Shown here one piece after another: positions 1,452 through 4,341 of a DNA stretch of 10,192 bases. A program made the translations under genes and the position numbers. Within the stretch, counting starts at the first letter, position 1. Every line of letters starts with the position of its first letter. Source of the DNA: a virus; UHGV virus genome UHGV-0119409. One strand, 5' to 3'. The notes beneath the pieces are model-generated. The model saw only the letters and a program-made list of their open reading frames with translations, ran no database searches and was not told where the DNA came from.

Positions 1452-2228
1452 TTACTTGATAAATCCTGCCGCCTTTCCCCGCCTGTATTCCTCCATCAGC
1501 CACTGCGCCGGTGTTATTCCCCCAAGGGTGGCGGCGTTAGGCATGCACCCGAAACTTCGCCCTGGTGGATGGTAAACGTCTCTCCCTGTGTCCGGAGGTG
1601 TACTCATGGGCTCTGGCTTTGCCTGTATGCTGATCACCGGATCGGGTATCTGCTGTCCGGAAGCCACCTTTTTCGCCCAATCATCGAGCAGCCTGCGCGC
1701 GTGTTTCTCAACCTCACTCTCGCTAAGCTGGCGCTGATACATTGCACGACGGGTATCACATACGACCCAGTACATAACCGGATGCCGCCACGGGAATCTT
1801 TCGGGACCACCAGGATATAAACTTTTTTCCTTGCTGTACCGGTGAAACTCCGCCATCACATCGTCAATGGTGACGCCAAGAACCATCTTGCTGTCTTTGC
1901 ACCACTTGATGAATTGCCCTGGCGACGGCCAGAACGGAGATTCACTGGCGCGGGCGTGGCGCATACCAGCGTTAACCTGTTCCATTGTAGTGATCCCATT
2001 CTCCAGAAACGCAAGCATCCATTGCTTACGGAATTCATTAAGTTTGTTCTGCTCCCTTATGGTCGAAACGCTTGCAGGAAATGCAGCCTGTAACTGGACA
2101 AATAGTTCATTGAAAATTCTAGCAACCTGCTCCTTTTTGCCATTGCTGTCACGCCGCTCTTCATGCACAGCAACACCATGCTCACGTAAGCGATCGTACT
2201 CATTGAGAAGTTCTGGAGTTGATTTCAT
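1452..2228 (-). CDS. Replication protein P-like DnaB helicase loader (258 aa)
   Basis: Blocks ...AFPAS..., ...ENGITTMEQVNAGMR..., ...PSPGQF..., ...YPW... match what I recall of lambda P. ATG at 2228 with AAGGGG 6 nt upstream. Overlaps the end of the upstream O-like gene by 29 nt. Confidence 0.85.
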   Translation of the reverse strand: MKSTPELLNEYDRLREHGVAVHEERRDSNGKKEQVARIFNELFVQLQAAFPASVSTIREQNKLNEFRKQWMLAFLENGITTMEQVNAGMRHARASESPFWPSPGQFIKWCKDSKMVLGVTIDDVMAEFHRYSKEKSLYPGGPERFPWRHPVMYWVVCDTRRAMYQRQLSESEVEKHARRLLDDWAKKVASGQQIPDPVISIQAKPEPMSTPPDTGRDVYHPPGRSFGCMPNAATLGGITPAQWLMEEYRRGKAAGFIK

Positions 2229-3030
2229 CCCACACCCCTTCTATCCAGTCAGTGTTATTCCAGTCAAGCTCATCGCTTTTCCCGGCATTTTTTGATTTTC
2301 CCCTGATATGATTTACGTGCCTGGCGAATTTTTGTTCCCACTGAACCTGCGTGAACACTTTGCCCTCAGCCATCCAGTAATCCCGGAATGCAGCAAGTTC
2401 AGCAGGTGTAAATTCCGGTTCCGGCAGGGCCGTTCCCCACAGCGCAGCACGCCGCCGAAAATCTGGCGACGGTAGCCAGCCATCTGTCATCGGAAATTTC
2501 CCGATGGGTTCACTCAGGCCATCCAGAAATTCAGGTTCTGCCACCTGCAACGGCGTACTGTTCGCTTCACTGGTCGGAGCACCCTCGCGCACGTGCGCTA
2601 TGTGTGGGGTTTTATATATATCTTCCTCTTCCTCTTCCTCTGGTAACTCCTTTTGTAACGCTGTTGGCGTTACTTTTTGCGTTACTCGTTTTCGATGCTC
2701 TGCCACTCTTCTATTCGTAAGTGCACGTTTTTTCGATGATTCTCCATTATGTCGCTCAAAGTTTGGAAGAATTAGTTTGCCGTCATGATAAGCAAGCCAT
2801 CCGACGCTAATGAGGGCGTCAGCAAATCCTGTAATAAAAGCGAGTCTATCAAGCACTCCTTTTGTAACGCTGCCAGCGTTACCGTCTATTGTTTGCTGGT
2901 CAGCCCATGCCCATATACGAACCAGCTTTCCAAGAACAGCATCTGGATCAATACCCAGAATTTCTGCTATCTGAAAAATTTCAGGTTTATCAGGAGTGAT
3001 AACTTCAACCTTAATCCAGCTGCTTGCCAT
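2200..3030 (-). CDS. Replication initiator, O-like (276 aa from ATG at 3030; a GTG at 3048 is the alternative start)
   Basis: Sits directly upstream of and overlapping the P-like gene. ATG at 3030 has GAGGGG 6-7 nt upstream. The protein has an N-terminal domain, an acidic EEEEEED linker and a C-terminal domain, and the iteron-like DNA repeats sit in the linker-coding region as in lambda O. Confidence 0.65.
   Translation of the reverse strand: MASSWIKVEVITPDKPEIFQIAEILGIDPDAVLGKLVRIWAWADQQTIDGNAGSVTKGVLDRLAFITGFADALISVGWLAYHDGKLILPNFERHNGESSKKRALTNRRVAEHRKRVTQKVTPTALQKELPEEEEEEDIYKTPHIAHVREGAPTSEANSTPLQVAEPEFLDGLSEPIGKFPMTDGWLPSPDFRRRAALWGTALPEPEFTPAELAAFRDYWMAEGKVFTQVQWEQKFARHVNHIRGKSKNAGKSDELDWNNTDWIEGVWDEINSRTSQ
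2611..2685. other. Candidate origin of replication: AT-rich tract, (TCTTCC)3 and dyad half-sites at ~12-bp spacing
   Basis: ttatatata (2612-2620), then (tcttcc)x3 (2621-2638), then half-sites gtaacgc at 2655-2661 and gcgttac at 2667-2673 and 2679-2685 (12-bp spacing; partial gtaac at 2644). The 19-bp dyad gtaacgctgttggcgttac lies at 2655-2673. All inside the linker-coding part of the O-like gene. Confidence 0.5.
2857..2882. repeat. Second copy of the 17-bp repeat ctccttttgtaacgctg plus a 19-bp perfect dyad
   Basis: Exact 17-bp repeat of 2647-2663 followed by gtaacgctgccagcgttac (9-bp arms). It is read in a different codon phase from copy 1, so the conservation is at the DNA level. Confidence 0.5.
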
Positions 3031-3223
3031 AGGTTTCCCCTCTTGCACTCTTTAGTGCACAAGCAAATTCATTACGATGGCGGTTGGCGCTATTCATTGC
3101 ACATTCAACACATGTTCCGTTCAGAACATACCTTTCAGAGAGATGGCCGTGACGGCACCGCTTTCCTGTGAAATAGCGATTTAACCCGGCTTTTGCGGCC
3201 TCCATTCTGGTTACTATCTTCAA
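3011..3223 (-). CDS. Small Cys/His-containing protein, possible zinc-binding regulator (70 aa; TTG start at 3223 or ATG at 3205)
   Basis: ORF between the cro-like and O-like genes in operon orientation. Motif ...KRCRHGH...NGTCVEC... suggests a metal-binding knuckle. Start codon uncertain. Overlaps the O-like gene start by about 20 nt. Confidence 0.45.
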   Translation of the reverse strand: MKIVTRMEAAKAGLNRYFTGKRCRHGHLSERYVLNGTCVECAMNSANRHRNEFACALKSARGETYGKQLD

Positions 3224-3326: not shown

Positions 3327-3350
3327 GAAAAGACCGCCGGGTGGCGGTCT
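3327..3350 (-). terminator. Intrinsic terminator downstream of the cro-like gene (tR1-like position)
   Basis: Minus strand reads AGACCGCC-ACCC-GGCGGTCT (8-bp GC-rich stem, 3331-3350) followed by TTTT (complement of 3327-3330). Confidence 0.5.
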
Positions 3351-3371: not shown

Positions 3372-3602
3372 TCATGAGTAGAAGAAGTATGCCAGTTCTG
3401 CTTTTGAGCGCAGCCATTGTCTTGTTTTACAGGCTTTAAAAAGCCCATTCATCAATACCTTACCTGGCATTTTGCGCTTGCCTGTTAAGTGAGTCTGGAT
3501 ATAGTGACTCGTCGTTCCGGCTTCCTGTGCGAAGGCTTCACGCTCATCCGGAGTAAGTGCAAGCCAGTGCTTTTTGAAATCGAAATGTCCGTTATCGCTC
3601 AT
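3372..3602 (-). CDS. Cro-like HTH DNA-binding regulator (76 aa)
   Basis: First gene of the leftward operon, divergent from the repressor. Segment ...FAQEAGTTSHYIQTHLTGKRK... has helix-turn-helix character resembling Cro/CII-type phage regulators. Weak SD. Confidence 0.55.
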   Translation of the reverse strand: MSDNGHFDFKKHWLALTPDEREAFAQEAGTTSHYIQTHLTGKRKMPGKVLMNGLFKACKTRQWLRSKAELAYFFYS

Positions 3603-3638
3603 AGCTATTGCCTGATATTTATTTCAGATAATAAATAT

Positions 3639-3701
3639 TCACCCATAAGGTAACAAAAATCAAGGATAGTTACCTATGAGGTGCATTTACCTGTTGGGTA
3701 A
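3639..3701. promoter_or_regulatory. Divergent immunity control region with a tripartite operator (OR-like)
   Basis: Perfect palindrome ttacctgttgggtaa (3687-3701), and degenerate copies ttacctatgaggtgc (3670-3684) and tcacccataaggtaa (3639-3653), between the divergent cro-like and repressor genes. Exact -35/-10 elements not resolved. Confidence 0.6.
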
Positions 3702-3756
3702 TATTGCTTTAAATTGAATCATCTACTGATTCATATATGAGGCGATTTTCCAGAAA

Positions 3757-4341
3757 ATGAAAAGTATCCAGGACGTCCGCAGGCAAAATCTCAACGACTT
3801 GATCGACCGTGAATTCAATGGTGTTCAGACGCGGATGGCAGAAAAACTTGGAACTCAGGCAAATCTGGTAAACCGCTGGGCTCTTGGCAAGAAGGTTATC
3901 GGCGACCAGGTTGCGCGAAAAATTGAAGCTGCCGCCAATAAACCACGTAACTGGCTTGATATCGATCGCTCGCTTTCTCAGGAAGGTTTTCAGCCTGTCG
4001 GCCCGAGCGATATAGGTCAGCTGGCGGCTCACAACCTGGAACGCTGGATGAGCGAAAGCCGCGACCTTTCAACACAGGGAAAACTTCACCGCGCATCCGG
4101 CGTCGCCCAGGTGACAATCAGCCGCCTGTTAAACAATGAGGTCAGCGTTTCCATTTCCACCCTGGAGAATGTTGCATCCGCATTCGGGCGTCACGGATAT
4201 GAACTACTGATTCACCCGCACGACCCTGCGACTATCAACTATGACCGCTCACGCTACGCATTGTTACCCGAAACCGAGAAAGCAAAGATCGAAAGTTACA
4301 TTGAATTTGTCATCAACCAGAACGAAAAAAGCAAACAATAA
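3757..4341 (+). CDS. Prophage repressor, CI-like by position, without a recognisable LexA/S24 autocleavage domain (194 aa)
   Basis: Divergent from the cro-like gene and followed by a terminator. Two HTH-like segments (...QTRMAEKLGTQANLVNRW... and ...ASGVAQVTISRLLNN...). No Ala-Gly cleavage site or Ser...Lys dyad pattern seen. Confidence 0.6.
   Translation: MKSIQDVRRQNLNDLIDREFNGVQTRMAEKLGTQANLVNRWALGKKVIGDQVARKIEAAANKPRNWLDIDRSLSQEGFQPVGPSDIGQLAAHNLERWMSESRDLSTQGKLHRASGVAQVTISRLLNNEVSVSISTLENVASAFGRHGYELLIHPHDPATINYDRSRYALLPETEKAKIESYIEFVINQNEKSKQ

Follow-up and report, generated by a model that had tools for sequence, protein, structure and literature searches.

The window analysed here, a stretch of 10,192 nucleotides of viral DNA (UHGV-0119409), carries on its minus strand a replication initiator gene (2200..3030), whose product of 277 amino acids, counted from an ATG at 3030, matches phrog_2509 ('replication initiation protein') with an E value of 1e-129. 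The list of open reading frames also offers an upstream GTG at 3048 as an alternative start, and of the two the ATG (MASSW...) seems the likelier one, since the homologues all begin with MASSW or MAGDW. In RefSeq the protein is labelled only as 'DnaT-like ssDNA-binding domain-containing protein'. Its N-terminal domain (aa 1-125, encoded at 2656..3030 on the minus strand) is predicted to be winged-helix-like and is presumed to bind the origin, whereas the C-terminal region (2284..2496, minus strand) encodes a domain with the DnaT-type ssDNA-binding fold. The AlphaFold model shows a confident N-domain followed by a disordered segment (126-178), and this set of domains, winged-helix-like, disordered linker and DnaT, fits an origin binder. 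Directly downstream, and overlapping the end of the initiator gene, lies a gene for a lambda P-like helicase loader (1452..2228, minus strand; PF06992, E 5e-56; 39% identity to lambda P, E 7e-50). Pfam matches also indicate several HTH proteins encoded elsewhere in the window.

The initiator can be separated from the known families that it recalls. A DnaT equivalog was rejected, as the match to NCBIfam NF002770 (DnaT, primosomal protein I) is confined to residues 177-258 and reaches 92.3 bits against a cut-off of 201; moreover, unlike E. coli DnaT, the protein has an unrelated N-terminal two thirds and is encoded in a phage replication module beside a P-like loader. The initial annotation had called it 'O-like', which holds as far as a putative functional analogue of lambda O is meant, but not as family membership. 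Pfam Phage_rep_O (PF04492) gave no match in the protein at E <= 0.01, N-terminal similarity is lacking, and a single BLASTP comparison with lambda O aligned only a C-terminal stretch of 55 aa (27% identity, E 0.003), so that membership of the lambda O family was rejected. Pfam did not match Phage_rep_org_N in the initiator either, nor a Rep_3-type domain in the window.

The heptamer GTAACGC occurs six times in the window, where 0.85 +/- 0.87 copies are expected, a count that none of 200 dinucleotide shuffles reaches, and five of the six copies fall within the initiator gene. Four half-sites, of which two are forward and two reverse, start at 2643, 2655, 2667 and 2679 and form an array in a 12-bp register. 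Its centre is a 19-bp palindrome, dyad A (GTAACGC-TGTTG-GCGTTAC, 2655..2673), flanked on one side by an outer half-site, GCGTTAC (2679..2685), which is the first in gene order, and on the other by a degenerate half-site with one mismatch, GTAACTC (2643..2649; GAGTTAC on the sense strand). A second perfect 7-N5-7 palindrome, dyad B (GTAACGC-TGCCA-GCGTTAC, 2864..2882), covers codons 50-56, in a loop between helices, and its centre is 209 bp, or about 20 helical turns, from that of dyad A. Each dyad is included in one copy of a 28-nt direct repeat (2646-2673 and 2855-2882). The array itself covers codons 116-130, where the N-domain gives way to the disordered segment. The dyads sit 150 and 350 nt inside the coding sequence. 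The A/T tract, the (TCTTCC)3 repeat, the half-sites at 2655, 2667 and 2679 with their exact 12-bp spacing and the translation of the linker (LQKELPEEEEEEDIY) had all been correctly placed by the initial annotation, which missed the half-site at 2643-2649 and dyad B. An iteron plasmid origin of the Rep_3 or RepA type was considered and rejected, because the half-sites are 7 bp long and symmetric, not tandem direct 17-22-mers.

The degenerate half-site abuts a homopurine tract of 21 nt, AGAGGAAGAGGAAGAGGAAGA (2621..2641, minus strand), which reads (GAGGAA)3 on the sense strand and (TCTTCC)3 on the plus strand at 2621-2638, encodes EEEEEE, and is the longest homopurine/homopyrimidine run in the window. 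It is adjoined by a pure A/T run of 12 nt, TTTTATATATAT (2610..2621). Together they constitute a candidate DNA-unwinding element: the 20-mer at 2611-2630, with a nearest-neighbour dG of -19.4 on a scale where the window has a mean of -26.6 and a standard deviation of 2.6, is the least stable of the whole gene and lies in the top 0.4% of the window. This instability is visible only in the 20-nt nearest-neighbour profile, the composition at the 40-nt scale giving no marked A/T-rich block. For the window alone, the six Glu residues require all-purine codons anyway, and the fixed alternation of GAG and GAA is the only extra evidence available within this sequence. Beyond the A/T run, a C-tract (CCCC on the sense strand, 2606-2609) and a GC-rich 12-bp perfect palindrome, GCGCACGTGCGC (2587-2598), mark the start of the C-terminal module (2587..2609).

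Comparison with homologues indicates that these repeats have been retained as DNA. The conservation of synonymous sites, chosen beforehand as the observation that could speak against the annotation, turned out in its favour. Among 11 homologues from E. coli, Enterobacter, Klebsiella, Pseudomonas, Xanthomonas, Ralstonia and uncultured phages, with protein identities down to about 50%, only 3 of 40 conserved columns with degenerate amino acids use a single codon, and these three, G50 (GGT), N51 (AAC) and V55 (GTT), coincide precisely with the arms of dyad B (2864-2882), fixed even in phages of 55-62% GC. In 61 close relatives, 82% of the third codon positions vary, whereas dyad B varies in just one of its 19 columns, located in the spacer. 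For dyad A, the same set has one arm invariant, infrequent variants at two positions of the other and a variable spacer; a four-sequence alignment gives invariant arms and a variable spacer. Moreover, the reading frame of the same 26 nt differs between the two dyad copies (VTPTALQ and GNAGSVT), and the array at 2655-2685 is kept as DNA even though its frame differs in some relatives (VTPTALQ versus GNAxSVT). Since the frames differ between the dyads and the codons of the arms are fixed, the alignments show the repeats to be kept by selection on the DNA rather than on the encoded protein. The purine tract, the A/T run and the GC-rich palindrome, which complete this conserved cis element, are likewise kept at the DNA level. 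The GNAxSVT peptide motif is itself conserved in the N-domain. The outer half-site (2679-2685) is less conserved than the others, being GAAACGC in BUCT554 and in a Klebsiella phage, and position 2643-2649 is occupied by a perfect GCGTTAC in Rac and the Klebsiella phage.

More divergent homologues, at 33-39% identity, carry other dyads at the same offsets in the gene (GTAGACG/CGTCTAC, GTCCGC/GCGGAC and TGTCACA/TGTGACA). Two forward and two reverse half-sites at a spacing of 11-13 bp are the commonest layout among 76 related loci, and other relatives have extra direct half-sites, such as three forward plus one reverse or four forward plus one reverse. A mutual information scan of N-domain columns against half-site class singled out no specificity residues: scores were high throughout the domain, and the scan is uninformative because each half-site class is a phylogenetic clade as well. 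Except for the GTCCGC class, to which the N-domain of epsilon15 belongs, the mean identity of the N-domains is nearly the same within half-site classes as between them.

The purine tract shows a similar behaviour. Its alternation of GAG and GAA does not vary among relatives at 69-84% nucleotide identity, and close relatives change only the number of units; a short A/T-rich stretch likewise follows the tract in the relatives. Unexpectedly, in more distant relatives the tract is replaced by an exact (GAGAA)4, conserved at the nucleotide level across several initiator families, some of whose genes carry the Pfam Phage_rep_org_N domain. Phages epsilon15 and phiPSA1 are examples with (GAGAA)4. The initial annotation had placed the repeats in a segment coding for an acidic linker, and the AlphaFold model does locate them where the N-domain ends and the disordered linker starts, but this segment is better read as a DNA element, because the (GAGAA)4 of the relatives encodes REEKRREE there, which is not an acidic peptide. 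In a sample of relatives picked by protein similarity, all the Arg codons of the tract (26/26) are AGA, compared with 7% AGA elsewhere in the same genes. The identical 23-mer (GAGAA)4 joins many different N- and C-modules, with tract lengths of 23-52 nt, and in every case the tract runs along the sense strand, immediately behind the final half-site of the initiator. The 23-mer also occurs as an ordinary microsatellite in the genomes of bacteria and archaea, where only 12-22 of 120 sampled stretches show the repeat-plus-ORF context; outside phage DNA the tract is therefore not diagnostic by itself.

The limits of the homologue matches reveal a mosaic junction at 2606..2621, between the N-module, which includes the repeats and the tract, and the C-module: relatives of the N-module match the window from 2606-2621 upward, whereas those of the C-module match from 2301 to 2612-2619. 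The string AAACCCCACACATAGCGC...GCGAG also opens the C-module in Rac-SA53 and PPompW, whose N-modules are unrelated. In these natural chimeras the type of repeat tracks the N-module, the same C-module being joined to three N-modules with GTAACGC, TGTTCAA or ACCCAAA: Rac-SA53 has a DUF1376-type N-module with four TGTTCAA copies, and PPompW another N-module with six copies of ACCCAAA. This co-inheritance is partly trivial, because the sites lie inside the DNA that encodes the N-domain. N-modules with GTAACGC are found with P-like, DnaC-like or no annotated loaders, and with varied upstream genes. The C-terminal tail motif common to the initiator and lambda O showed no tracking with P-like partners in the few cases examined.

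Taken as a whole, the element would be the replication origin of a temperate E. coli phage, lying within the gene for the phage's own initiator and laid out like ori-lambda, a reading to which a probability of about 0.77 can be given. In lambda and Stx phages, the O-some assembles at an origin located within gene O (PMC7466680; annotated in NC_001416), whose iterons occupy nt 349-433 of the 900 nt of the gene in the lambda annotation (NC_001416). As with the candidate in the window, the origin separates the coding parts of the DNA-binding N-domain and of the loader-interacting C-domain, and consists of sites of about 19 bp with dyad symmetry, followed by a strand-asymmetric purine-rich A/T region and then by an inverted repeat. 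After the iterons, the sense strand of lambda shows a homopurine, A-rich stretch of 18 nt, with the same polarity as in the window, and immediately downstream follows a gene for a P-type loader, of which the product encoded in the window is a 39% identical counterpart. The placement like that of ori-lambda claimed by the initial annotation is borne out: in both genes, at 40-50% of their length, iterons precede an A/T region whose sense strand is rich in purines. Both initiators also share a C-terminal tail motif (LDWNNTDWIEGV against LDLTNTDWIYGV). The two systems differ in that lambda and Stx phages have 4-6 tandem iterons, whereas the window has four half-sites packed into one array and, 209 bp off, a second dyad within the part coding for the N-domain; in that about 40 bp of A/T-rich DNA in lambda correspond to a G+A repeat and 12 nt of A/T; and in the DnaT-like C-domain of the initiator, without PF04492, in place of that of lambda O. 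The element is also small, with two dyads, two weaker half-sites and a strictly A/T part of only 12 nt.

Initiation at such an origin would start with dimers of the winged-helix-like N-domain binding the dyads and the flanking half-sites, possibly bridging both sites. This binding would stress the adjacent purine and A/T stretch and lead to its unwinding. The DnaT-type C-domain would then hold the single-stranded DNA and/or recruit the P-like loader encoded just downstream, which would deliver the host DnaB helicase. As at ori-lambda, the transcription of the initiator gene itself would cross the element.

Other systems offer further points of comparison. The Rac variant of E. coli 442/2 (MN652886) and phages 666R9, 673R7 and 613R10 share the N-module (YdaU, about 70% protein identity), the GTAACGC dyads at the same positions and the (GAGGAA)3 tract. 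The Rac variant differs by its DnaC-like loader (YdaV) instead of a P-like one and by a third dyad just upstream of the ydaU start codon, whereas the YdaU of K-12 Rac has another N-module (DUF1376) with TGTTCAA repeats. The Rac prophage has been reported to have an active origin, oriJ (PMC3945230), and a literature search for its map position gave only statements that oriJ exists and is active. In the case of phage SPP1, oriL lies within gene 38, which encodes the replisome organizer G38P (PMC6316719), and there too initiator-binding repeats and an A/T-rich unwinding element are found inside the gene of the origin-binding protein, with the loader gene following. SPP1 differs in having direct repeats, a second origin elsewhere in its genome and a Gram-positive host.

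The strongest competitor, although improbable, is that the dyads are operators for transcriptional control, either for autoregulation of the initiator or for another phage regulator. Perfect 19-bp palindromes are typical of dimeric regulators, the window encodes several HTH proteins, and the third copy of the Rac variant stands just upstream of the ydaU start codon, but the sites of the window are located 150 and 350 nt into the coding sequence, in a gene where no promoter-like site was found, and the cI/cro-type intergenic region (3603-3756) has no GTAACGC. Moreover, phages that retain GTAACGC have different upstream neighbours, and wherever the array occurs it is linked, in the same order and polarity, to the purine and A/T tract at the domain junction, which a plain operator would not need.

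A slightly less probable reading takes the inverted repeats as hairpins, in the form of an RNA stem-loop, an antisense terminator or a single-strand signal for initiation or primosome assembly. The dyads do fold on both strands (-7.4 to -8.8 kcal/mol, z-scores of -4.2 to -5.2), although these scores do not discriminate, since folding follows trivially from any dyad. In a promoter and terminator scan of the gene only the dyads scored, as weak terminator-like stems, a pattern produced on the plus (antisense) strand by dyad A followed by a T-run; dyad B is devoid of such a run, and Rfam gave no match in the window. The arms of the dyads change together between clades, but never vary within a clade, so that there are no compensatory changes. 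DnaT is part of the primosome that assembles on hairpin sites, and the initiator carries a DnaT-type domain; even so, the clade-specific sequences favour a phage-encoded reader over host PriA, and the extra direct half-sites of many relatives, at 11-13 bp, suit phased protein binding rather than a stem.

It is less probable again that the purine tract, with or without its adjoining sequence, has been kept mainly as a recombination junction for the exchange of N- and C-modules and not as a part of an origin. The mosaic breakpoints at 2606-2621 do coincide with the end of the tract, and the identical 23-mer linking many modules belongs to tracts of 23-52 nt, which reach the length usually needed for homologous recombination. 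However, a benefit in recombination would by itself probably not suffice to keep all 26 Arg codons as AGA, or to fix the strand of the tract and its position right after the last half-site, and lambda too shows a homopurine stretch at the corresponding place of its proven origin. In any case, such a junction would be compatible with the origin reading and explains nothing about the dyads. Finally, that the repeats are a by-product of coding or chance, in which repeated peptide motifs (GNA..VT, poly-Glu) give repeated DNA, is hardly credible: GNAxSVT is conserved in the N-domain and Glu6 is necessarily homopurine, but the same 26 nt occur in two frames, synonymous positions are fixed in the arms only, six GTAACGC copies stand against 0.85 expected, AGA accounts for 100% of the Arg codons in the tract and for 7% in the rest of these genes, and the 33-57% protein identity of the homologues excludes the recent transfer of one sequence.

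Returning to the origin reading, a further question is whether the homopurine tract contributes more than a soft spot in the duplex. That it would be a specific and undescribed origin element, common to unrelated replisome-organizer families (the MAGDWIK family, Lin1244_N, Phage_rep_org_N and DUF1376-like, in phage contigs of 34-69% GC), is a tentative proposal, rather doubtful at present; a literature search for earlier descriptions of a purine tract in phage origins found nothing relevant. Such a tract could possibly serve as a defined landing strip on which the DnaT-type domain, the loader or the helicase would bind single-stranded DNA, or it might give a purine-rich transcript whose stable RNA-DNA hybrid would open the origin or prime it, as a polypurine tract does. 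Exact at the nucleotide level, it connects initiator families without detectable sequence similarity, and, if its role were specific, it would point to a shared step of origin opening or helicase loading in many phages of distant hosts and provide an easy marker to find phage origins in metagenomes.

The repeats of an origin can be read from the conservation of synonymous sites inside initiator genes, with a specificity that changes clade by clade. Knowing the origin would give a handle on prophage induction and copy number, as well as a compact initiator-plus-origin cassette for vectors. The origin of this replication module is annotated nowhere, and its gene is labelled just as 'DnaT-like' or 'primosomal protein I'. 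The module itself is present in about 4% of complete E. coli genomes (237/5426) and in isolated phages, including the Stx2-converting TL-2011b.

The putative replication initiator gene (2200-3030, minus strand, 831 nt) contains four 7-bp half-sites at an exact 12-bp register, two per orientation (plus strand: GTAACTC at 2643, GTAACGC at 2655, and GCGTTAC at 2667 and 2679), the inner pair forming a perfect 19-bp dyad (dyad A, 2655-2673). Next to this array lie a 21-nt homopyrimidine run including (TCTTCC)3 (2621-2641, plus strand), which is a homopurine tract on the sense strand, an A/T run TTTTATATATAT (2610-2621, plus strand) and a GGGG (2606-2609, plus strand). Within the gene, the array takes nt 346-388 and the tract nt 390-410, with the A/T run ending at nt 421. 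The initial annotation had already noted the A/T tract, the (TCTTCC)3 repeat and the 12-bp spacing of the half-sites at 2655, 2667 and 2679, all confirmed in the sequence, and had overlooked a second perfect dyad, GTAACGC-TGCCA-GCGTTAC (dyad B, 2864-2882), taken in by a 28-nt direct repeat (2646-2673/2855-2882). The two dyads are 209 bp apart, about 20 helical turns, a spacing of 209 bp too in two relatives and of 207 bp in Rac. GTAACGC occurs six times in the window versus 0.85 expected (none of 200 shuffles reaches six), 2611-2630 is the least stable 20-mer duplex of the gene (top 0.4% of the window), and 2621-2641 is the longest homopurine/homopyrimidine run of the window. Just past the A/T run, a GC-rich perfect 12-bp palindrome GCGCACGTGCGC (2587-2598, plus-strand reading) is found, at a place where GCGCGCGC-type or C-run/G-run dyads are frequent in relatives; the palindrome and these counterparts recall the inverted repeat on the right-hand side of ori-lambda.

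From these sequence comparisons, the array and tract are best filed as a candidate origin of the lambda-like kind belonging to another initiator family, an element that is unannotated and for which no description was found in the literature searched. Published work describes the lambda origin as lying midway in O and consisting of iterons and an A/T-rich tract (PMC7466680), and oriL of SPP1 lies inside the gene of its origin-binding protein, with repeats and an A/T-rich unwinding element (PMC6316719). In the lambda record, four iterons are annotated at nt 349-433 of the 900-nt O gene, and about 22 nt past them the sense strand shows AAAAGAAAAAAGAAAAGA, an 18-nt homopurine stretch, and then an imperfect inverted repeat. 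Order of elements, polarity and relative position in the gene agree with the window, in line with the proposed ori-lambda-like placement inside the initiator gene. The window differs from lambda in its initiator, outside the lambda O family and with a DnaT-type C-domain, in having a compact array of four half-sites instead of tandem 19-mers, in the additional dyad 209 bp off, and in a G+A repeat that replaces most of the A/T-rich region.

Three independent results of sequence comparison indicate that the DNA rather than the protein is under selection at the dyads. One 26-nt string is read in two frames within the gene, as GTA ACG CCA ACA GCG TTA CAA (VTPTALQ) in the array and as GGT AAC GCT GGC AGC GTT ACA (GNAGSVT) at dyad B, and relatives read their array in the GNAxSVT frame. 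When the N-domain codons of 11 homologues were aligned (phages of E. coli, Enterobacter, Klebsiella, Pseudomonas, Xanthomonas and Ralstonia, plus two uncultured phages), only three of the 40 conserved degenerate amino-acid columns kept one codon in 11/11 sequences, G50 (GGT), N51 (AAC) and V55 (GTT), which are the arms of dyad B; codons of the remaining conserved columns (Gly, Val, Asn and similar) vary freely. In IMG/VR, 61 distinct sequences of close relatives differ at 106 of 130 third codon positions, and dyad B varies at one of its 19 columns, in the spacer; dyad A has a variable spacer, one invariant arm and another with rare variants at two positions, and the outer half-site at 2679 is under weaker constraint. 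Synonymous-site conservation of the half-sites, by which the initial annotation had proposed to judge its origin interpretation, is the outcome obtained, and the comparison supports that interpretation. Dyads constrained in this way could serve as an operator, an unlikely explanation with the adjoining tract and A/T run in view, and we give a little less credit still to a hairpin signal, which perfect inverted repeats could provide, set beside the flanking half-sites in register.

The purine tract adjoining the candidate origin sites reads CC-AGAGGAAGAGGAAGAGGAAGA in the window, as it does in the closest relatives, a (GAGGAA)3 version with invariant GAG/GAA alternation, and CC-AGAGAAGAGAAGAGAAGAGAAGA, the exact pentanucleotide repeat (GAGAA)4, at the equivalent position of more distant relatives. 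It had been regarded as coding for an acidic linker, and it does encode Glu6 in the window, but as a protein feature this does not extend to the more distant relatives, whose (GAGAA)4 encodes REEKRREE, a non-acidic peptide seen in many phage replication proteins; judged by these relatives, the segment is a DNA element. Glu6 can be encoded by purines only, so for the window the DNA-level argument is drawn from the fixed order of GAG and GAA codons and from the relatives. In nine phages found via protein similarity, and therefore a sample free of DNA-based selection, all 26 Arg codons of the REEKRREE peptide are AGA, versus 11/156 (7%) elsewhere in their genes. At least 120 IMG/VR contigs contain the exact 23-mer; among the matches listed, in contigs of 34-69% GC, it has 114 distinct upstream flanks, is part of a sense-strand ORF no shorter than 150 aa in 118/120 contigs, and is preceded within 130 nt by a 6-mer repeated at least four times (both orientations) in 64/117 cases versus 6/411 control windows. 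The last of the clade-specific half-sites adjoins the tract (...GCGTTACC, ...GCGGACC and ...CGTGACC, each followed directly by AGAG). Tract-bearing genes have N-terminal parts of the MAGDWIK family (that of the window), Lin1244_N, Phage_rep_org_N or a weak DUF1376 match, and the nucleotide-level conservation of (GAGAA)4 spans several initiator families (IMG/VR loci L100-L219; named phages L085-L099), this cross-family tract being the part that a specialist would not have predicted. The 23-mer is not confined to phage DNA: genomes of widely differing bacteria and a few archaeal assemblies (L221-L340) carry it too, and there it is also a plain microsatellite. Many of these copies belong to longer simple repeats with no initiator setting, and only 12-22 of 120 sampled stretches show such a setting; the tract alone does not identify a phage origin. 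After the tract, many relatives have C-tracts that encode PPNPP or PLNPP, similar to those of K-12 Rac ydaU. Mosaic breakpoints, in relatives sharing only the N-terminal or only the C-terminal module, fall at 2606-2621, exactly where tract and A/T run end. A recombination junction, an explanation for the tract only, is improbable by itself and compatible with the origin reading; the conserved tract may additionally be a place where modules are exchanged by crossover.

Homologues of the N-domain with 50-57% identity retain GTAACGC dyads at +149 and about +345 to +380 from the start codon, and those at 33-39% identity show different dyads at equivalent offsets: GTAGACG-N6-CGTCTAC in Ralstonia phage Raharianne, GTCCGC/GCGGAC in Cobetia phage Carin1, phiPSA1 and RPZH6, and TGTCACA-N7-TGTGACA in a Vibrio phage. 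In epsilon15 and BUCT711 the dyad scan gave no perfect seven-base dyad, but GTCCGC/GCGGAC half-sites lie immediately upstream of their tract. In 76 further loci, the commonest arrangement is that of the window, two half-sites forward and two reverse, their starts 11-13 bp apart. The C-module of the window, from the string AAACCCCACACATAGCGC on, is common to the YdaU of Rac-SA53 and the replication protein of PPompW, whose N-modules are unrelated to that of the window and carry TGTTCAA x4 and ACCCAAA x6, respectively. GTAACGC N-modules are accompanied by P-like, DnaC-like or no annotated loaders and by varied upstream genes, and only the N-terminal domain always goes with a given half-site. In part this linkage is trivial, since the sites lie within or beside the DNA encoding that domain; its non-trivial part, as read from the alignments, is that presence, position and layout of the repeats persist though their sequence changes. 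That the repeats are a coding by-product, as their place inside a gene might suggest, is highly improbable beside one string kept in two frames. The Rac prophage variant MN652886 has N-module and sites as in the window. Rac is mentioned as having an active origin, oriJ (PMC3945230), for which the literature search found no published mapping. Unlike the window, K-12 Rac YdaU (L220:3120-3977) carries an N-module of another type, DUF1376, and repeats of its own, TGTTCAA x4, followed in the gene by an A-rich stretch and CCCCCCC-TAAAT-CCCCCCC-GGGGG, and this repeat region is a plausible location of oriJ.

The initiator more likely starts at ATG 3030 than at the GTG 3048 of the mechanical ORF call, since all homologues begin there (MASSW/MAGDW) and GAGGGG precedes it. 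Its product matches PHROG 2509 'replication initiation protein' (E 1e-129), and its sole Pfam match is a C-terminal DnaT DNA-binding domain; a full-length DnaT was rejected (equivalog model, 92 bits versus 201 needed). The 'O-like' label fails as membership of the lambda O family, with no match to it in Pfam and similarity to lambda O confined to the extreme C-terminal tail (2200-2260, LDWNNTDWIEGV versus LDLTNTDWIYGV), which could be a contact for a P-type loader. A gene for such a helicase loader lies next downstream (1452-2228; PF06992, 39% identity to lambda P, E 7e-50). VW-6S, the sole other relative examined with an annotated P-like partner, is without the lambda-O-like tail. Building on the anatomy, DNA-level selection, N-module coupling, protein domain make-up and P-like neighbour, which we count as established, N-domain dimers would bind the dyads and flanking half-sites, and dyads A and B, on one helix face, may be bridged. 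The adjoining purine and A/T stretch would then open, and the DnaT-type domain would bind the exposed strand and/or the P-like loader would bring DnaB, the gene's own transcription presumably running through the origin element.

The rest of the window is a typical temperate-phage early region, with a cI/cro-type pair, RecT, a YqaJ-type exonuclease, an MT-A70 methylase, a phosphatase, AlpA and an integrase, and the window is nearly identical to phages vB_EcoP_ZX5, HEMP4 and TL-2011b. Segment 2590-2900 is present in 237/5426 complete E. coli genomes, every time in the chromosome. A 70-aa protein gene (3011-3223, minus strand; CxxGH...CxxC motif, phrog_1081, function unknown) overlaps the initiator start, and its homologues precede the initiator in BUCT554 and a Klebsiella phage, whereas other GTAACGC phages lack them at this place. 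Between the 70-aa and cro-like genes (3331-3350, minus strand), upstream of the replication genes, the sequence AGACCGCCACCCGGCGGTCT gives a strong terminator-like hairpin with a T-run after it. Finally, a perfect 7-N5-7 palindrome TGAATCATCTACTGATTCA (3715-3733), between the divergent cro-like (3372-3602, minus strand) and cI-like (3757-4341, plus strand) genes, is probably an immunity operator.
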